DNA from: Poseidonia sp.
GTDB lineage: Archaea > Thermoplasmatota > Poseidoniia > Poseidoniales > Poseidoniaceae
Assembly: GCA_049600935.1 (NCBI GenBank)
Contig: JBMYQB010000005.1
Span: forward strand, 1,436 to 65,435
Direction of reading: 5' to 3'
DNA length: 64,000 bases
Under the pieces are notes generated by a model. It had not been told where the DNA came from and did no database searches. It saw nothing but the letters and a program-made list of their open reading frames with translations. The first letter of the stretch is position 1, and every line of letters starts with the position of its first letter. Below are positions 23,231 through 33,003 of the stretch, piece after piece. The translations under genes were made by a program, and so were the position numbers.

Positions 23231-24004
23231 TCAAAGCAGGCTTCTGAGCGCTTCCCTGTCAAAGTGAGAAACAGCTTGCTGGTAGGCTTCGTTTGCAGGA
23301 AACCATGCGGCTTCAGAGATTTCCTCCGTTTGTAGGGTCAACTCGCTGAGGTCGCCGTTCCACGTAGAACGATAGGTGAACGAAACAAAGGAAATCCCTT
23401 CGTCATTAAACACCCGTTGCGTGATTACAGGTTCGATATTGTCGAGCACAATGGTCAATCCAAGTTCTTCTAGGGTTTCCCGAACGCATCCAACAGCCGG
23501 ATGTTCGTCGTGGTCCATGTACCCGCCGGGAAGAGTCCAAAATCCACGAAAATGACCACGCTCAACACGCCCCATTAGCACCTCTCCATCGTCGTTGCAT
23601 ACCATCACTTTTGCAACAAGCCGGTGAATGGACCTGTATATGGCGTCCCGAGCCACGGGATGAACAGCGTTGTCAGAGGCACACCTGTCTTTCCACGCCC
23701 AGTCTTTTGGCCAATCAACCCGGGGGTATCCTTTGACCACCCTGTATTGGGATTCACCGTACCGAAGCACAACCGTGCCTTTTTCTTCAAACTCTATGGC
23801 CAATTTCTGCAGTTCTTTACGTGTCGGAAATCGAAGACCGTCCTGAGAATCGGTTCGTCCCTGTACCGGGCGTTGAGGGCCACGACCTTGTTCATCAACA
23901 AGAAGCACCTTTCCATCGTGTTCGAGGTACACAACTTCAACGGGGTGCATGTGAACCTCCACCCTGTGCTGCGTCATCAATTCTCGCATCAAGGCAAGAC
24001 TCAT
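23231..24004 (-). CDS. NUDIX hydrolase with an N-terminal extension of about 125 aa
   Basis: Nudix box GGYMDHDEHPAVGCVRETLEELGL (Gx5Ex7REUxEExGU). Its ATG overlaps the rmuC stop (ATGA, 24001-24004). Confidence 0.85.
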   Translation of the reverse strand: MSLALMRELMTQHRVEVHMHPVEVVYLEHDGKVLLVDEQGRGPQRPVQGRTDSQDGLRFPTRKELQKLAIEFEEKGTVVLRYGESQYRVVKGYPRVDWPKDWAWKDRCASDNAVHPVARDAIYRSIHRLVAKVMVCNDDGEVLMGRVERGHFRGFWTLPGGYMDHDEHPAVGCVRETLEELGLTIVLDNIEPVITQRVFNDEGISFVSFTYRSTWNGDLSELTLQTEEISEAAWFPANEAYQQAVSHFDREALRSLL

Positions 24005-25206
24005 TCTTTCGGATGGTCGATGTCCTTTGGTTCAGGCAGCGTCGCTTGGAGCGTCTCACTCACCTTGAGTTCCTCAAGGCGACGTCCTTGCGGAAGCACG
24101 CGACCTTCGTAGGAATTCATCGTGGCATCGTAAGCCTTCGCCGCCTTCGACAGGTGGCCGCCCACTTTCTGGAAATGGTCGATCATGGTCGTGATTCGCT
24201 TGTACAACTCCCTTGATACATCGTAGATTTCCTTTGCTCCCTCAGCAAGTGCGTGTTGTTGCCAATAAAGCGCCACGGTACGAAGAAGCCCCAGCATGGT
24301 CACTGGGGTGGCCACAAGCACCGATTTACTCATGGCATAATCCATCAAATCCGGGTCAATCGAGAAGGCTGCGGCGGCCATGGCTTCGCTTGGAACAAAC
24401 ATGACAACATGGTCAAATTCACCCTCGATGTTCTCCTGATAGGACTTTTTGCTAAGTTCAGTGATCCTGGACTTCATCGCCGTTGCGTGCTTACGGATCA
24501 ACTCATCTTGTTCGGGGCCAGGGTCCAATTCTGCTGCTTGCAGGAAATGTGCTCCTGTCGCTTTGGAGTCGATGGGAATGACACCTTCCTGTGGTAAGGC
24601 AACGACAAAATCAGGTCGTGTGCCATCGGTCAGGGTGACCTGCTCAGAGAAATCGATGTGTTCGCTCAAGCCCGCCATCTCGAACAAGCGTCGCAACTTG
24701 ACCTCGCCCCAGTTGCCTCGAGCCTGACTTGAGGTGGTCAACGCCGTCGACAAAGCCGTCGTTCGGCTTGAGAGGGATTCAGTTTTTTCCCCGAGTTCCT
24801 TGAGGTGTCGCTTGAGCCCTTCGTAAGCCCCAACCCGTTCTTTTTCCATGTCCGTGTTCAACGTCATGAGACGAGCCATTTCTTCCTGGATTGGCTTGAT
24901 GAGGTTGGCCACCTCAAGTTTTCGTGTTTCAAGGGCATGCTCGGCATCCTTTTGTTGCGCAGTAAATCGGTCTTGTGCCATTTGAAGGAAGCGAGCGGAA
25001 TTTTCTTCGCCGACCTTGGTGGCGATGTTCTCAACTTCTGCCCGGATTCGTTGTTCGTTCGTTTCCGCCGCCTCTTCGTTTGCTTTGAGGCGTTCTTCCG
25101 CACGGATGAGTTTTGCCGATGTGGCCTGTTTGGCCAAGAGCCATCCGAGCGCTCCACCGATTCCGAGTCCCACGACGAGCAGACCGTATTCAACGAGGGC
25201 TGTCAT
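24001..25206 (-). CDS. rmuC: DNA recombination protein RmuC family (N-terminal TM, coiled coil, PD-(D/E)xK-like nuclease domain)
   Basis: GTRPDFVVALPQEGVIPIDSKA, HVVMFVPSEAMAAAA, VLVATPVTMLGLLRTVALYW. I start it at the ATG at 25206 (MTALVEYGLLVVGLGIGG...). The longer ORF to 25497 would run through the neighbouring MBL gene start. Confidence 0.85.
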   Translation of the reverse strand: MTALVEYGLLVVGLGIGGALGWLLAKQATSAKLIRAEERLKANEEAAETNEQRIRAEVENIATKVGEENSARFLQMAQDRFTAQQKDAEHALETRKLEVANLIKPIQEEMARLMTLNTDMEKERVGAYEGLKRHLKELGEKTESLSSRTTALSTALTTSSQARGNWGEVKLRRLFEMAGLSEHIDFSEQVTLTDGTRPDFVVALPQEGVIPIDSKATGAHFLQAAELDPGPEQDELIRKHATAMKSRITELSKKSYQENIEGEFDHVVMFVPSEAMAAAAFSIDPDLMDYAMSKSVLVATPVTMLGLLRTVALYWQQHALAEGAKEIYDVSRELYKRITTMIDHFQKVGGHLSKAAKAYDATMNSYEGRVLPQGRRLEELKVSETLQATLPEPKDIDHPKE

Positions 25207-25284
25207 GGTGAAACATTCATGACGACAGTATATGATGAATACCCATTGTGAACCTTCAAAGCGAAGCAGGAGGTGGAGTGATTC

Positions 25285-25995
25285 ATGCGGTTTGAGCAAC
25301 TGAACGAAGGCGTGTGGGCGATGACCTACCTTATCGTCGATGAAGAGACGCAACAGGCGGCGCTTGTTGACCCCGTTTACGACTTTCTGGAGACCTACAT
25401 CTCCCTCATCAAAGAACAAGGTCTGAACCTTGTTTACGCCATTGCGACCCACACCCACGCAGACCACATCACGGCGTGCTTCACCTTGCGAGAGCAATTC
25501 GGGTGCGACTACGTCATGTCACACGAAACGGCTAGCCTCGCTGTATCTCGGTACGTTGAGGATGAGGAAACGATCATGCTCGGTTCCATTCCGATTCAGT
25601 TTCACGCCTCTCCCGGCCATACCAACGACTCCATGATCGTCCACGTACCCGGGTACATGATGACCGGTGACTTCCTGTTCAACGGTGAAGGTGGTGTTGG
25701 CCGAGACGATCTTCCAAGCGGCCGCGTGCAGGTGCACTGGGATGCACTGTCCGTACTCGACAGGTTTGAGGGCCATACCATCGTTTGTTCGGGGCACGAC
25801 CCTCCGGGGACCACCATGATGTCGCTGGATTGGAACAAGGAACACAATCCCATTCTTTCCATGGCTGATTTTGAGACCTTCCGAGCGTGGCAGGAAGCGA
25901 CCGCTGCAAAACTTGGCGGTGTTTCAAAAATCAAGACGGCGATTCCTGCCAATCTCTTCGGAGAAGTACCCGAACACATCCCGTGGTTGGACTGA
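25285..25995 (+). CDS. MBL-fold metallo-hydrolase (glyoxalase II / persulfide dioxygenase-like)
   Basis: HxHxDH motif ATHTHADHITA, later SPGHTNDS and CSGHD. GGAGGTGGAG lies upstream of the ATG. Confidence 0.8.
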   Translation: MRFEQLNEGVWAMTYLIVDEETQQAALVDPVYDFLETYISLIKEQGLNLVYAIATHTHADHITACFTLREQFGCDYVMSHETASLAVSRYVEDEETIMLGSIPIQFHASPGHTNDSMIVHVPGYMMTGDFLFNGEGGVGRDDLPSGRVQVHWDALSVLDRFEGHTIVCSGHDPPGTTMMSLDWNKEHNPILSMADFETFRAWQEATAAKLGGVSKIKTAIPANLFGEVPEHIPWLD

Positions 25996-28236: not shown

Positions 28237-28300
28237 CACTTTCACTTTCAACGACTGGGTCTTGAATAAGCATCCCTTGCTTCTCGGGTCTCGTAGCGTT

Positions 28301-28570
28301 ATGGGTCGAAGTGTGCCGCCATGGCGAACGCGAGTGGAAGACGAGTTGCAACACTTGATGCCCTATCGTCGGGCGCTGTCTTGTGTGGATCAAGCGGCGT
28401 TTGATGCGCTGCTCAATGAGGTGCGACAGCGTCGTTCTGCGGGAGGTCTCCTCCCCGCATTGAACACATGGCAGCCCATGGTGCTCAACATGCTGGTTGG
28501 ATTGATGGCGCAAGTCTCGCACCTAACGGCCCGAATAGAAGCACTTGAGGAACGGCGTAGCGATGATTGA
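28301..28570 (+). CDS. small hypothetical protein (89 aa) translationally coupled to polB
   Basis: ATG at 28301. Its stop (28568-28570) overlaps the polB ATG at 28563 (ATGATTGA). The C-terminus is helical (VSHLTARIEALEERR). No family recognised. Confidence 0.5.
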   Translation: MGRSVPPWRTRVEDELQHLMPYRRALSCVDQAAFDALLNEVRQRRSAGGLLPALNTWQPMVLNMLVGLMAQVSHLTARIEALEERRSDD

Positions 28571-31016
28571 GGGGTGGCTTCTTGATGTTCATGAAAACGA
28601 GGCCAACACCGGCATGGTGGCGTGGGTGGTTGACCTCCATGGCGCTGCGCATCGGTGTGATGTTCCCTGGCGCCCCACCCTTCACGTTCACGCAACACAT
28701 GAACAACTGGATCGTTTGGAACACTGGTTGATGCAACCCGAAATCCAACTCCGCTTCGGCATCGGTGATGTCCGAATGACACGTGCTCGTTTAGATTTGG
28801 AGGCAACGGGTCAAGTCGACGTGCTCGAAATCGGATTGCGTGCGTATCAACATCTTCGCGGATTGGCCGAACACATTGAAGCCAGAGGCGATTTTCACCG
28901 ATTCAAACTTTATTCAGTCGATGCGCACCTTGCTCAACGTTTCTTGAACGAACACGGTTGCATTCCATTTCAACGGGTTCGTTGGTCAGATGCATCGCCA
29001 GAGGACTTGGAGCCCTTGGAGGAATGCACTACGGACAACGGTGTCTATCCGCCGTTCCATGTTGTACAGATGCGGTTTGAACGTGGCCACGGCTCAACGC
29101 TTCCCTCGCTTGAACGCACCGTTGAAGTCATTCATTTGAACAGCGTTCACGAACCGGGTTTGGCCTCGTTTTCAGTCCCGCTTTCGATCACGCTCAAGCG
29201 TCAAAATTTTCCGTCCATGTCGGCCATGCTCATGGCCTTTCAAGACGCTCTTGCGTCCATGAATCCAGACATTGTTATGTCGACGGGCGGCGATCAGCGT
29301 TGGCTTCCGTGGCTGGTCGAGCAGGCCACGCTGCACGATGTTCCCCTTCAACTCGGGCGCACCACGGACGTGCTCGCTCAGTCCACCCATCAACGTACGA
29401 TTCATTCCTACGGCCAAACCCGTCATCGACACGGGTCGTTCTTCTTCAAAGGACGTCTCCATCTTGATATCAAGAACAGTTTCATCGTGAACGAGGGCGG
29501 TCTTGCTGGTTTGTTTGAATTGGCCCAACACTCGCGACAATCAGCTCAAATCATCTCTCGCCTTTCACCTGGTTCAGTCATCAGTGCCATCCAAATGCGG
29601 GTGGCCATGGACGACGGTGTGCTCGTACCTTGGAAGAAAAATCGGCCTGAAGACACCAAATCGGCACTGGATTTGCTTCATGCCGACCGAGGGGGCCTCT
29701 ACCTTGACAGCCGGCCAGGCGTTCATGCATCGGTCATCGAACTTGATTTTGCGAGCCTGTTCCCGAGCATCATCGCCACCCGTAATATCTCACCTGAAAC
29801 CTTGAATTGCTCTTGTTGCCAACCGGTGGCGCAAGCGGGTTCGCGAGGGGTGGTCCCTTTGCATCCCGATGAAGCCGCTCAAGAATTCCGAGAACGAGCA
29901 GTGTTGTCGGCCTTTGGTCACGGGTTGTTCCCTCTTTCGCACGAAAAAGCGCTTTCCGTTCCAGGCCTCAACATGCACACCTGCGGACGAACACACGGTT
30001 TTCTCGGTCGTGTTGTGGCACCCATCATTGAACGACGACGAGAACTGAAGCGTCAACGTCAGCACAAAGGGGACGCCTTTGACCTGCGGCAGAATGCCCT
30101 CAAGTGGCTTCTCGTGACCTGTTTTGGATACACGGGCTATCGCAATGCTCGCTTTGGACGAATCGAGGCCCATGAAGCGATCTGTGCGTGGTCTCGGGAC
30201 CTCTTGTTAACCACCATTGAAGAGGCTCAGAAAGACGGGTGGGATGTCCTTCACGCCATCGTTGACTGCGTTTGGCTTTCGGATACACGGGGGCGTACGA
30301 AGCATCAACAACGGGTGGACGCCGAAGCGTTTGCCAGCCGCATCTCTGAACAGGTCGGTATTCCGCTTGAGTTTGAAGCGCACTACGACTTCATCGCCTT
30401 TTTGCCGAGCCGAATGCACGGTTCAGGTTCCCTGACAAAATACTGGGCCTGTACCGAAGGGGAATTCAAAGTGCGAGGCATTGAGTTACGCCAACATTCC
30501 ACGCCCCGATGGGTAAGTGAACTTCAGCAAAAGGGATTGGAGTTGTTAGCCGAAGGTGAGCGTATCGAAGGACGTCCTTCCCTTCAGGCACAACGGTCGG
30601 TTTTGGCGCACTATCGGAGGGAACTTCAGCGCTTGAAGACGAACCAGGTATCGTTGTCAGACCTCGTCATGACACGACGAACGACCCGTTCCATTGAGGA
30701 CTACCGAGTTCAGAATTTGACCTATGGCGCTTTGATGCGGGCCCACGGTCTCGGGCATGAGGTTCCCCCTGGGGGCAAGGTTCGGTATGCGGTCGTGAAC
30801 CGTTCAGCCACCGAACCGATGGAACGCGTTTTGCTGGCCGAAGAAATTGAGGCCTTGGGCCGTCAACACGCCGGTTGCCCTCTGCACTATGCAGAACTTG
30901 CAGAGCGAGCCATTTGGGCCCTGCTTGCTCCGTTTGGCTGGACTACGGACCAACTGCGAAACGACGGTCTTCAACCGAGTCTTCTGGAATTTATTCATCC
31001 TGGTGGCGCAGCGTAA
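28563..31016 (+). CDS. polB: family B DNA polymerase, divergent (PolB2/Dpo2-like): exonuclease motifs degenerate, polymerase motifs A and B present, motif C atypical
   Basis: Motif A ELDFASLFPSII. Motif B KWLLVTCFGYTGY. KxY region SLTKYW plus RGIELRQHSTPRW. Motif C position reads HAIVDCVW where YxDTDx is expected. Exo I, II and III positions read VVQMRFE, GGDQRWLPWL and AQHSRQSA. All alignments are by eye. Confidence 0.85.
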   Translation: MIEGWLLDVHENEANTGMVAWVVDLHGAAHRCDVPWRPTLHVHATHEQLDRLEHWLMQPEIQLRFGIGDVRMTRARLDLEATGQVDVLEIGLRAYQHLRGLAEHIEARGDFHRFKLYSVDAHLAQRFLNEHGCIPFQRVRWSDASPEDLEPLEECTTDNGVYPPFHVVQMRFERGHGSTLPSLERTVEVIHLNSVHEPGLASFSVPLSITLKRQNFPSMSAMLMAFQDALASMNPDIVMSTGGDQRWLPWLVEQATLHDVPLQLGRTTDVLAQSTHQRTIHSYGQTRHRHGSFFFKGRLHLDIKNSFIVNEGGLAGLFELAQHSRQSAQIISRLSPGSVISAIQMRVAMDDGVLVPWKKNRPEDTKSALDLLHADRGGLYLDSRPGVHASVIELDFASLFPSIIATRNISPETLNCSCCQPVAQAGSRGVVPLHPDEAAQEFRERAVLSAFGHGLFPLSHEKALSVPGLNMHTCGRTHGFLGRVVAPIIERRRELKRQRQHKGDAFDLRQNALKWLLVTCFGYTGYRNARFGRIEAHEAICAWSRDLLLTTIEEAQKDGWDVLHAIVDCVWLSDTRGRTKHQQRVDAEAFASRISEQVGIPLEFEAHYDFIAFLPSRMHGSGSLTKYWACTEGEFKVRGIELRQHSTPRWVSELQQKGLELLAEGERIEGRPSLQAQRSVLAHYRRELQRLKTNQVSLSDLVMTRRTTRSIEDYRVQNLTYGALMRAHGLGHEVPPGGKVRYAVVNRSATEPMERVLLAEEIEALGRQHAGCPLHYAELAERAIWALLAPFGWTTDQLRNDGLQPSLLEFIHPGGAA

Positions 31017-31773
31017 GAGCGCCAATGTTTGGCGGGGCTGTCGCCAGGGTGGGTCTTTTTTCGGTGAGACAAAAGCGTAATTGTGGGTCGATTTGGAGCG
31101 GCATCCATGGACCTTGCACACCGGATTTACGATGCTTGAGGTGCAAGACCCTCCGTCGTCTTCCGTGCCATGCCCCTTCAAGGTGGTTCTGTGCGTGTCG
31201 GTGAAGGTGTTGGAGCAAACGTGAATCGGTATACGGTGAATGGACCGTTCCTGTGATGGCAATGACGGCTGCGTGATGTTGCTGTGCAAGTTGGCGTAAA
31301 ATGTGCACGTGCCGCCTTAGCAGCGTTCTGGATTCCAGTCGCGAAACGGCATCATCGCCGTGCATGGCCAGCAAACCGTCAAGCACCACCATCGGTGAAC
31401 GGGTGATGGCCAGTTCATGCGGCAATCGTTCAATTTGGCGGTCGAGTTGGTGCAACGTGAACCCCCGACTCAGGTACAAGCGACCGAGGCACGCCTCAAC
31501 ATCGGCCCCCAGAGCTTCGAGAATCGGAATGAATCGCGAGGGGTCAATTCGGCAGGCGCCGTCCACCCAGTGAACAACCTCGCCCTGAACCAAGGCGTGG
31601 GCCACCCAGTGCTCGGCCACGCGTCGCATGCTCTTTCCTGCACGGCCAGGGCCGCTCAGTTGGTAGAGTTGGCCACGAACGGGCTGAATGGACATCGGGT
31701 CAATCCCTCGTCGTCGTCGAATCAATCCGCGTGCAGCATCAATGGCCGTATTCGTTGGTCCCATGGGAATCAT
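30991..31773 (-). CDS. RecA-fold ATPase, RadB/ImuA-like recombinase paralog
   Basis: Walker A LSGPGRAGKS, Walker B-like SPMVVLDGLL, RecA-core-like AAVIAITGTV and RRRVLHLKHRKSG. 260 aa. The 3' end overlaps polB by 26 nt. Confidence 0.65.
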   Translation of the reverse strand: MIPMGPTNTAIDAARGLIRRRRGIDPMSIQPVRGQLYQLSGPGRAGKSMRRVAEHWVAHALVQGEVVHWVDGACRIDPSRFIPILEALGADVEACLGRLYLSRGFTLHQLDRQIERLPHELAITRSPMVVLDGLLAMHGDDAVSRLESRTLLRRHVHILRQLAQQHHAAVIAITGTVHSPYTDSRLLQHLHRHAQNHLEGAWHGRRRRVLHLKHRKSGVQGPWMPLQIDPQLRFCLTEKRPTLATAPPNIGALTLRHQDE

Positions 31774-31872
31774 TGAACGACGCTGTAGGAGGTCATCCTA
31801 TCTTGCGAAGACCCCTGTGTTTAACTGAAGAGACACATCAACTTCAAACACCGCTGGCACCGATGGGCGAAC

Positions 31873-33003
31873 GTGGTAGGCGAACAAAACGTGGCCGAAC
31901 CGCTCGGGCCAAGGATTCTCATTCACTGCGATTTGGATGCCTTCTTTGCTGCGGTGGAAACCATCCACCATGGATTTGATGAAGCCGTGCCGTTGATCAT
32001 CGGTTCAGACCCGAAGCAAGGTCGTGGACGAGGCATTGTTTCGACCTGCAATTACGCAGCACGAGCCTACGGAATCCGCTCAGCCATGCCGGTTTCTGAG
32101 GCGTGGCGTCGTTGCCCAGCGGCCCCGTTTGGACCCGCCATCTACATCCGAGGTACCCGTGGACTCTACAGCAGGGCGAGTCGAAAAGTGATGGCGTGTC
32201 TGCAGCAACCTGCCAACCTGTTTGAAAAAGCGAGCATTGACGAGGCGTATCTTGATGTCACCGAGACCGTCGAAGGCGACTGGGATGCTGCGCTTGCGCT
32301 TGCAAAGCACTTGCAACATCAAATCCTTGAGGAAGTCAACCTCACCGCATCCTTTGGTATTGGCCCCACGCGATTGGTTGCGAAAATGGCCAGTGAGGTG
32401 AACAAACCCAACGGTATTTTCAGGGTCATGCCCGACGAGGTGAATGCCTTTTTCGAAGGTCGTTCGCTGCGCGACATCCCGGGTATCGGCCCCAAACGGG
32501 CAACGCAACTGGCTGAGTGGGGCTACACCACGGCCGACGAACTTTACGCCCTGGGTGAACTCACGTTGTCAAGCCTCGCAGGTGAGCGATTTGCAACATG
32601 GTTCATGCGGGTGCTTGACGGTGAGAGCAGCAATGTCGTCAGTCCACTTCGCAGCAGGAAATCCATTGGAAAAGAGCATACGTTTGAGCGTGATGTAGAG
32701 AATCATGAAGTCGTGCTTGAGCGGCTTGAGGAACTGGTTTCTCTTGTCATGGAACGGGCCACGACCTTGGGTGTATCGGGTCGTTTGGCCGAGGTAAAAA
32801 TACGATACACGGGATTTGAAACCCACACGTCGGGCAGAAGCATCCCGGTGGCCATGGACGACGAAACGGTGTTCAAACGATTAGCAAAGGGCCTGTTTGC
32901 CACAAATATTCGTCCTGAAAACCGGGTCCGATTAATTGGCTTCCGTCTCGGCCAACTGGAAATCCCTCCCTCTCGGCAAACAACGCTGTTTGAGGAAGAA
33001 TAA
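31873..33003 (+). CDS. dinB: Y-family DNA polymerase IV (DinB/Dpo4-like), catalytic residues intact
   Basis: ILIHCDLDAFFAAVE and ASIDEAYLDVT carry the catalytic Asp/Glu; also FGIGPTRLVAKMAS and IPGIGPKRA (HhH). The start is the GTG at 31873 or at 31891; there is no in-frame ATG upstream of the active site. Confidence 0.9.
   Translation: MVGEQNVAEPLGPRILIHCDLDAFFAAVETIHHGFDEAVPLIIGSDPKQGRGRGIVSTCNYAARAYGIRSAMPVSEAWRRCPAAPFGPAIYIRGTRGLYSRASRKVMACLQQPANLFEKASIDEAYLDVTETVEGDWDAALALAKHLQHQILEEVNLTASFGIGPTRLVAKMASEVNKPNGIFRVMPDEVNAFFEGRSLRDIPGIGPKRATQLAEWGYTTADELYALGELTLSSLAGERFATWFMRVLDGESSNVVSPLRSRKSIGKEHTFERDVENHEVVLERLEELVSLVMERATTLGVSGRLAEVKIRYTGFETHTSGRSIPVAMDDETVFKRLAKGLFATNIRPENRVRLIGFRLGQLEIPPSRQTTLFEEE

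Follow-up and report, generated by a model that had tools for sequence, protein, structure and literature searches.

Probable catalytic subunit of a PolB2 mutasome and its partner genes in a Poseidonia (Marine Group II) archaeon

A 64,000-nt stretch of a Poseidonia sp. contig (JBMYQB010000005.1; hereafter the window, to which all positions and strands refer) encodes an 817-residue family B DNA polymerase, which we identify with a probability of about 85% as the catalytic subunit of a PolB2 mutasome in this Marine Group II (MGII) archaeon. Its gene lies between those for PPB2 and for iRadA, an inactivated RadA-type protein, and a gene for the Y-family polymerase DinB stands next to iRadA (Table 1). 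By analogy with Dpo2 of Sulfolobales, the likely function of the complex is damage tolerance, through extension of mismatched or lesion-opposed primer ends. PolB2, its partners and the Poseidoniales version of the operon are already known in the literature; conservation of the hexamer ANTTTC upstream of PolB2 operons outside Sulfolobales is the single lead with a chance of being new.

PolB2 is defined by an HxxxD version of motif C, a D(K/R) motif and a decayed exonuclease (PMC8764526, PMC11791011), and the window protein fits this definition through all three features. A first-pass annotation had described it as a non-proofreading, possibly active, specialised polymerase resembling the PolB2/Dpo2 group, a view supported by the HxxxD and D(K/R) motifs, the decayed exonuclease, and the PPB2 and inactivated RadA partners. 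The partner genes, which had been missed, point to a multi-subunit mutasome and not a stand-alone enzyme. Motifs were mapped by aligning a 43-sequence family profile with Pyrococcus furiosus (Pfu) PolB in hhalign (probability 100%, E 1e-63, 681 aligned columns; the reference sequence is 100% identical to PDB 3a2f_A), and conservation was counted over 136 aligned representatives out of 553 50%-identity clusters from an exhaustive HMMER search (E <= 1e-30). The motif strings quoted earlier are all present in place: MRFE at residues 170-173, GGDQRWLPWL at 242-251, HSRQSA at 323-328, DFASLFPS with Asp395 at nt 29745-29747, and HAIVDC with Asp568 at nt 30264-30266.

The polymerase site retains the two metal-binding carboxylates of family B, Asp395 of motif A and Asp568 of motif C. 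D395 stands opposite Pfu D405, confirming the earlier reading of motif A, and H564, I566 and D568 stand opposite Y539, D541 and D543, so that motif C indeed keeps only its second Asp. Conservation of these positions is almost complete across the family: the motif A Asp and the motif B Lys each occur in 135 of the 136 representatives and the second motif C Asp in all 136, while at the first-Asp position of motif C only I, L, V, M, Y or N occur. His564 is conserved among the 136 and invariant in the 43-sequence alignment. Motif B and the KxY region, both described before as retained, are so only in part. In motif B, K514 (Pfu K488) and G522 are kept, but Pfu N492, S493 and Y495 are replaced by V518, T519 and F521; in KxY, Pfu K593-R594-Y595 corresponds to R617 and K626-Y627, but with an 8-residue insertion between R617 and K626.

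The sequence shows a dead exonuclease site, with Arg for the Asp of Exo I, Trp for that of Exo II and the Exo III helix deleted. R171 aligns with Pfu D141 and E173 with E143, as first proposed; W247 aligns with D215 behind a preserved GD, again as proposed and in agreement with phmmer/hmmsearch alignments. Across the 136 representatives the Exo I Asp position is variable and the Exo II Asp position is mostly L, I or V. For Exo III the earlier claim was right that the Tyr and Asp are absent, but the substitutions it reported (Tyr to His and Asp to Ser, from equating HSRQSA with YSMEDA) are an artefact of alignment by eye. Three alignments, two by phmmer/hmmsearch to PDB chains and one by hhalign, place HSRQSA 25 residues downstream of the motif, and the equation is rejected. 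Instead, hhalign opens a 56-column gap, with concurring HMMER boundaries (query 264-314 corresponding to PDB 238-333); since YSMEDA falls inside this gap, Exo III is gone rather than substituted.

The open reading frame is intact (ATG at 28563, TAA at 31014-31016), and orthologues likewise begin MIEGWLLDV. The product has exactly the sequence of NCBI MGB0515575.1, a protein labelled 'DNA polymerase domain-containing protein' that comes from a metagenome-assembled genome (MAG) of Poseidonia sp. Its sole Pfam domain is DNA_pol_B (72 bits, residues 348-749), and the Pfam search gave no DNA_pol_B_exo1 match. Against the 90%-identical orthologue of locus L001, the ratio of nonsynonymous to synonymous substitution rates (dN/dS) is 0.083 overall; the polymerase domain alone has 0.044 and the exonuclease-like domain 0.158. 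These low values indicate strong purifying selection and hence a functional gene rather than one in decay.

Before 2020, PolB2 was regarded as a catalytically dead pseudo-polymerase, acting only as a scaffold or regulator, and for the window protein we consider this improbable. The loss of three exonuclease motifs, the missing first Asp of motif C and the non-canonical motif B would all suit it, and on such grounds inactivation was predicted by Rogozin 2008 and Makarova 2014 (PMC4104785). However, the metal-ligating residues are kept in 135-136 of 136 representatives and dN/dS of the polymerase domain is 0.04. Furthermore, Dpo2, which shares HxxxD and IxD, matches the replicase Dpo1 in activity, and in solved family B structures it is the second Asp that ligates the metal, the first pointing away from the active centre (PMC8764526).

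An AlphaFold2 model of PolB2, built with 43 homologues, has a mean predicted local distance difference test score (pLDDT) of 83 and a predicted template-modelling score (pTM) of 0.81. Its full length can be matched to structures of archaeal PolB (9 degrees N, KOD, Pab, Tgo, Pfu), with template-modelling (TM) scores of 0.6-0.75 at ~18% identity, which suggests that the N-terminal and exonuclease-like domains are preserved as structure. Compared with archaeal PolB3 (Pfu, KOD, 9 degrees N, Tgo), the window protein shares the fold, the domain order, the metal ligands of motifs A and C and the motif B Lys, and, as a candidate, the C-terminal PCNA-interacting (PIP) box that Pfu PolB has in the same position. 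It differs in the absence of exonuclease catalytic residues, the deletion of Exo III, the change of YxDTD to HxIVD and of NSxY to VTxF, the 8-residue insertion that splits KxY, and a predicted dependence on PPB2 and iRadA partners.

A scan of species-representative genomes returned 590 relatives, the best 80 of which served for comparisons at the level of loci. The closest relatives of the window protein are all Poseidoniales; the wider set includes Poseidoniales, Thermoplasmata, Methanomassiliicoccales, Halobacteriota, Methanoperedens, Bathyarchaeia, Nitrososphaerales and several bacterial phyla, and no Sulfolobales locus is found among the best 80 of the 590. This patchy spread over archaea and bacteria is the distribution described for PolB2. 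In PolB2 representatives P0128 and P0140 an intein-like insertion lies within motif B (KWLLVT / C...THN / CFGYTGY), probably also in P0131, P0146, P0181, P0193 and other representatives longer than 1200 residues; inteins therefore target even an 'inactivated-looking' polymerase.

That the protein is instead a divergent replicative or back-up polymerase of PolB3 type, which lost proofreading independently and does not belong to PolB2, is very unlikely. The full-length fold shared with Thermococcales PolB3, with N-terminal and exonuclease-like domains retained, and a length exceeding that of Sulfolobus Dpo2, the smallest PolB2 described (PMC8764526), are what such an origin would leave. Identity to solved PolB3 structures, on the other hand, is only ~18%, whereas the nearest relatives outside Poseidoniales (28-52% identity; Thermoplasmata, Methanomassiliicoccales, Halobacteriota, Bathyarchaeia and bacteria) all have HxxxD and D(K/R) and are encoded beside PPB2 and iRadA. 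Moreover, the published analysis assigns Poseidoniales proteins to PolB2 operon group 3b (PMC11791011).

D375 is present in 136 of 136 representatives and is followed by R or K in 133 of them; the loop at residues 359-379 has pLDDT <50 in the monomer model. With the 40-residue insertion discounted, the spacing from D(K/R) to motif C equals the 148 residues of Saccharolobus islandicus (253-DK to 401-IID; PMC11791011). An FxxA-like docking segment is present and conserved (EDTK.A..L), with Thr365 at the aromatic position, which is F, W or Y in 97 of 136 representatives. Of the seven sequences that bear Thr there, six have an insertion of 37-43 residues after CxCC, and from this covariation the iRadA interface may be remodelled in Poseidoniales. 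In the window, the insertion (29820-29939), which co-occurs with Thr365 (29655-29657), has conserved P432, L433, A438 and F442. At first the insertion (VPLHPDEAAQEFRER) was suspected to be a mimic of the Rad51 polymerisation motif GFTTATEFHQRR, which it might still be; the published docking motif lies instead upstream of D(K/R), at PEDTKSA.

Cysteines C416, C418, C419 and C474 (29808-29819, 29982-29984) are invariant or nearly so throughout the PolB2 family, and could form a metal site. Thermococcales PolB has a two-Cys disulfide in the region matching this cluster. The MGII alignment shows an invariant L807 in the C-terminal motif QPSLLEFI and an F810 conserved to at least 90%; a short helix is modelled at 807-811. 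This PIP-like motif sits on PolB2 of the Poseidonia clade and not on their iRadA; in the window iRadA, the last 60 residues contain no Qxx[LIMV]xx[FYW].

In 71 loci phmmer finds PPB2 homologues directly upstream of PolB2, with a conserved N-terminus, MGR[TS]VP.[WFY]R. An MGRT arm with Arg3 and Arg9 is the hallmark of PPB2 (PMC11791011). A Pfam-A scan of the window PPB2 gave no match even at E <= 10, although orthologues are annotated as PF26485 (DUF8156). iRadA adjoins PolB2 in all 36 Poseidoniales loci that have it, in the order PPB2(+), PolB2(+), iRadA(-), and both iRadA and PPB2 with an MGR[ST] arm adjoin PolB2 in every Poseidoniales locus with enough flanking sequence, as they do in archaeal and bacterial relatives. 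In all other lineages scanned, iRadA, PPB2 and PolB2 follow one another on one strand. The three genes thus do not form one co-oriented operon in Poseidoniales, an arrangement that the published variant group 3b covers (PMC11791011).

Group 3b (PPB2-PolB2-iRadA), as set out by Timinskas, Timinskas & Venclovas 2025 (PMC11791011), comprises 95 operons, including those of Poseidonia sp. (MBL6742770/MBL6742771) and uncultured Poseidoniales. Neighbours of these 95 include IMS in 46, 2-Hacid_dh_C in 45, tRNA-synt_1 in 42 and Lactamase_B in 32. Because gene order, neighbours and taxon are the same, the window locus is an instance of this described class, and we see no substantive difference between the two. 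An earlier candidate reading, in which PolB, the RecA-like protein and DinB formed a new analogue of ImuA-ImuB-DnaE2, was given up as superseded by the known PolB2 mutasome; adjacency of DinB is already recorded in the published Table S1 (PMC11791011). The promoter element, the P-loop of Poseidoniaceae iRadA and the covariation of Thr365 with the insertion are not discussed in the accessible part of that paper.

The locus has ordinary chromosomal neighbours: genes for alanyl-tRNA synthetase (AlaRS), RtcB, NUDIX and RmuC, together with those for a class I tRNA synthetase and a 2-hydroxyacid dehydrogenase. In Poseidoniaceae contigs of 0.4-1.4 Mb the order AlaRS, NUDIX, RmuC, metallo-beta-lactamase (MBL), 2-Hacid_dh, PPB2, PolB2, iRadA, DinB, class I tRNA synthetase is kept, and across the window the GC content is even (0.53-0.56 in the region). 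That the polymerase belongs to a provirus or a mobile element, perhaps one with ties to casposons or pPolB, is therefore rejected on synteny and composition as barely credible, and no integrase, Cas1 or terminal-protein genes lie near the locus, even though archaeal mobile elements often carry family B polymerases and one relative (L060) has a resolvase gene beside its operon. The NUDIX hydrolase gene and the gene for RmuC, a DNA recombination protein, lie at 23231-25497 (-), 3-5 kb upstream, and keep this position in L001 and L004, which may reflect a repair-gene cluster or mere synteny. Outside Poseidoniales, a serine resolvase gene stands directly upstream of the PolB2 operon in one Halobacteriota MAG, and other genes in this place include those for SRAP, DUF72 and an XPB-type helicase (L040 486-1250, L046 2933-3913, L074 1-981, L060 2916-3716).

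iRadA scores 25.9 bits with Pfam Rad51 (cut-off 22), its core beginning at about residue 34, and its PDB matches (DMC1, RadB, Rad51, RadA) are confined to the ATPase core. Close relatives have R, S, A or Q where the P-loop Lys stands. Poseidoniaceae iRadA retains a full-length P-loop, whereas in MGIIb and all other lineages sampled the P-loop has a 3-residue deletion and the Walker B Asp is missing. Poseidoniaceae iRadA is thus less decayed than a typical iRadA, though probably still not a hydrolase; it may yet bind nucleotide, and with Walker A and B residues it could add a nucleotide-dependent control lost in other lineages. Public gene calls for iRadA in L001 (10429-11070, -) and L005 (8465-9103, -) start ~45 codons late, giving 212-213 residues without the P-loop; the longer form is favoured because of its conserved MI.M N-terminus. 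The neighbouring DinB, apparently active, matches NCBIfam NF002677 at 272 bits (cut-off 256) as well as Pfam IMS and IMS_C; of the 36 Poseidoniales loci carrying iRadA, 19 have an adjacent DinB.

Upstream of PPB2, the window has two tandem ANTTTC hexamers, ACTTTCACTTTC. In Sulfolobales, ANTTTC is a damage-responsive element located 23-55 nt upstream of start codons and bound by Orc1-2, on which induction of dpo2 depends (PMC6061795). In a scan with a position weight matrix (PWM), ACTTTCACTTTC is the sole strong site in the 64-kb window, and it is also the only exact copy of the 12-mer there; with one strong site per 64 kb, the element is not a general promoter feature. Loci of MGIIa and MGIIb with diverged flanks have an identical or nearly identical pair of hexamers at this distance, and upstream of PPB2 in Poseidoniales (L001-L041) GGGTC and an A-rich box come after the tandem form CACTTTCACTTTCA. 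A single A[CT]TTTCA, with a TATA-like box ~20 nt later, precedes iRadA, the first gene of the operon, in Thermoplasmatales, Methanomassiliicoccales, Halobacteriota and Methanoperedens (L039-L074). In several archaeal orders, then, the element lies in the same orientation about 55-75 nt upstream of the first PolB2 operon gene.

Between -100 and -20, forward-strand ANTTTC occurs in 21 of 30 Poseidoniales loci and in 16 of 26 other archaeal loci, where 8.5% is expected; on the reverse strand the counts are 3/30 and 0/26. These statistics were taken after crude dereplication and the loci are related by descent. An unbiased ranking of hexamers puts CACTTT, TTTCAC and ACTTTC at the top in both locus sets independently. 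Many Poseidoniales have a copy of the element of their own at about -60 of the inverted iRadA (L005 9263-9282, L013 8481-8500, L029 8112 and L002 9163-9182, all on the minus strand), with clear copies such as GACTTTCACTTTCA. In the genus of the window this copy is degenerate, with the downstream GGGGTCTT retained; a PWM scan for a second element before iRadA or DinB in the window gave nothing above background, the degenerate iRadA copy being visible only by alignment with other Poseidoniales. Between iRadA and DinB, 20-37 nt upstream of the DinB start, a second conserved block (31836-31852; CATCAACTTCAAACACC on the plus and GGTGTTTGAAGTTGATG on the minus strand) recurs in most Poseidoniales loci with DinB in this position; it may be the DinB promoter.

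Going by motif conservation only, damage probably induces expression of the operon via the ANTTTC pair that lies upstream of PPB2. A broader proposal, that control of the PolB2 mutasome by ANTTTC is ancient and pan-archaeal and that the element was duplicated before iRadA in Poseidoniales when that gene was inverted, is tentative, and we put it at somewhat below even odds. The literature found on ANTTTC in a microbial context concerns Sulfolobales only. No orc1/cdc6 gene was found beside eight non-Poseidoniales operons bearing ANTTTC, where DUF72, SRAP, XPB and resolvase genes lie instead, and for orc1/cdc6 beside group 3b operons the published count is 0 of 95 (PMC11791011).

How the mutasome would work can be pictured from Dpo2, which is active, lacks an exonuclease and extends mismatches and lesion-opposed termini (PMC8764526, PMC11791011), and which is required for damage-induced mutagenesis (PMC8764526, PMC7390963). 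Synthesis would be carried out by a polymerase site that keeps Asp395 and Asp568 together with the motif B Lys514. By analogy with Dpo2 and with published AlphaFold models (PMC11791011), PolB2 is predicted to assemble with a PPB2 trimer and one iRadA into a heteropentamer, in which the MGRS arm of PPB2 would insert between PolB2 and iRadA and touch the D375-R376 loop. The complex may be tethered to PCNA via the C-terminal QPSLLEFI and, judging from Dpo2, would extend mismatched or lesion-opposed primer ends without proofreading. The neighbouring DinB may first insert a nucleotide opposite the lesion and then hand over; in vitro, switching between Dpo4 and Dpo2 completes abasic-site bypass, which is inefficient for either alone (PMC8721586). 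The presumed outcome is damage tolerance, with mutation as its price.

Several points weigh against this reading. Activity of PolB2 outside Sulfolobales, Poseidoniales included, is judged from conservation. Motif B has lost the Asn, Ser and Tyr of the canonical form, and a Phe takes the place of the steric-gate Tyr, so that kinetics could differ from those of Dpo2. The FxxA aromatic, which docks iRadA in the published models, is a Thr, and the interface may differ accordingly. Finally, the iRadA gene is on the opposite strand, and operon structure does not guarantee co-expression.

The closest characterised system is that of Sulfolobus/Saccharolobus islandicus Dpo2 (group 3a), here compared by published descriptions. 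Both polymerases have HxxxD with Ile at the first-Asp position (401-IID-403 in Dpo2, IVD here), a D(K/R) loop and no exonuclease active site, and both systems have a PPB2 with an MGR[TS] arm, ANTTTC upstream and the gene order PPB2, PolB2, iRadA. They differ in that the window PolB2, at 817 residues, has structurally complete N-terminal and exonuclease-like domains, while Dpo2 is the smallest PolB2; in that the window iRadA is on the opposite strand and retains Walker A and B residues; in the Thr at the FxxA aromatic position, the 40-residue insertion after CxCC and the PIP-like motif of the window PolB2; and in the adjacent DinB.

Beyond archaea, bacterial Pol V (UmuD'2C-RecA) and ImuA-ImuB-DnaE2 similarly combine a specialised polymerase, a RecA-family protein and a small subunit with a sliding-clamp tether and a link to the damage response. 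In the bacterial mutasomes, however, the polymerase belongs to family Y or C and not B, whereas the RecA-like subunit here is a dedicated, inactivated archaeal RadA-type paralogue; the likeness is one of architecture, not of homology of the catalytic subunit. Eukaryotic Pol zeta (Rev3) is, like PolB2, a family B polymerase without proofreading that acts as an extender after a Y-family inserter, but it has the accessory subunits Rev7, Pol31 and Pol32 and a canonical YxDTD motif C, and the two are not closely related within family B.

Table 1. Coordinates of the PolB2 locus in the 64,000-nt window; residue numbers without a species refer to the window protein.
Feature	Position	Strand	Remarks
Candidate damage-responsive promoter element ACTTTCACTTTC	28238..28249	+	Two tandem ANTTTC hexamers, 63 to 52 nt upstream of the PPB2 ATG
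PPB2 (arCOG07300 / DUF8156), 89 residues	28301..28570	+	N-terminal arm MGRSVPPWR with Arg3 and Arg9; 3' end overlaps the PolB2 ATG by 8 nt
PolB2 family B DNA polymerase, 817 residues	28563..31016	+	Full-length fold, exonuclease domain dead by sequence, HxxxD polymerase site
Exo I relic MRFE	29070..29081	+	Arg at the catalytic Asp141 position, Glu173 kept (hhalign)
Exo II relic GGDQRWLPWL	29286..29315	+	W247 at the catalytic Asp215 position
Junction I303/K304	29469..29474	+	~56 residues missing relative to Pfu PolB, including the Exo III helix YSMEDA (311-316)
HSRQSA, earlier taken for Exo III	29529..29546	+	Aligns to Pfu LVGQPL (336-341)
Loop PEDTKSALDLLHADRGG	29646..29696	+	FxxA-like position (TKSA) and D375-R376 motif; roles from published complex models (PMC11791011)
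Motif A ELDFASLFPS	29739..29768	+	Asp395 metal ligand; Phe400 in place of the steric-gate Tyr410
CxCC cluster (416-419) and Poseidoniales-specific 40-residue insertion (420-459)	29808..29939	+	From hhalign insert states
Motif B KWLLVTCFGYTGY	30102..30140	+	K514 kept; canonical N, S, Y changed to V, T, F
Motif C HAIVD, the PolB2 HxxxD signature	30252..30266	+	Aligned to Pfu Y539-I-D-T-D543
Candidate PCNA-interacting motif QPSLLEFI	30972..30995	+	PolB2 C-terminus
iRadA, RadA/Rad51 core, 260 residues	30991..31773	-	Lacks the N-terminal domain; convergent with PolB2, 3' ends overlap by 26 nt
iRadA Walker B MVVLDG	31375..31392	-	Walker B Asp present
iRadA VDGAC	31552..31566	-	Opposite RadB VDTEG; catalytic Glu changed to Ala
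iRadA Walker A GPGRAGKS	31630..31653	-	Looks intact; aligned to GPYASGKT of T. kodakarensis RadB (2cvf)
Degenerate hexamer-pair copy TCTCTTCAGTTAAAC	31819..31833	-	60 to 46 nt upstream of the iRadA ATG; like the PPB2 promoter, has GGGGTCTT after it
DinB / Pol IV, Y-family	31873..33003	+	Divergent from iRadA, 99-nt spacer; motifs DLDAFFAAVE and SIDEAY intact

For annotation, PolB2 and its two partners, which are without functional names in the annotation sources, can now be named. Marine Group II archaea, which live under strong sunlight, carry a likely inserter of translesion synthesis (DinB) beside a likely extender (the PolB2 mutasome). The ANTTTC element would offer a concrete way to ask if the damage response run by Orc1-2 in Sulfolobales reaches other archaeal phyla; if the tentative pan-archaeal proposal for this element were true, the most abundant planktonic archaea of the sunlit ocean would run a damage-inducible mutagenesis programme of the Orc1/Cdc6 type.

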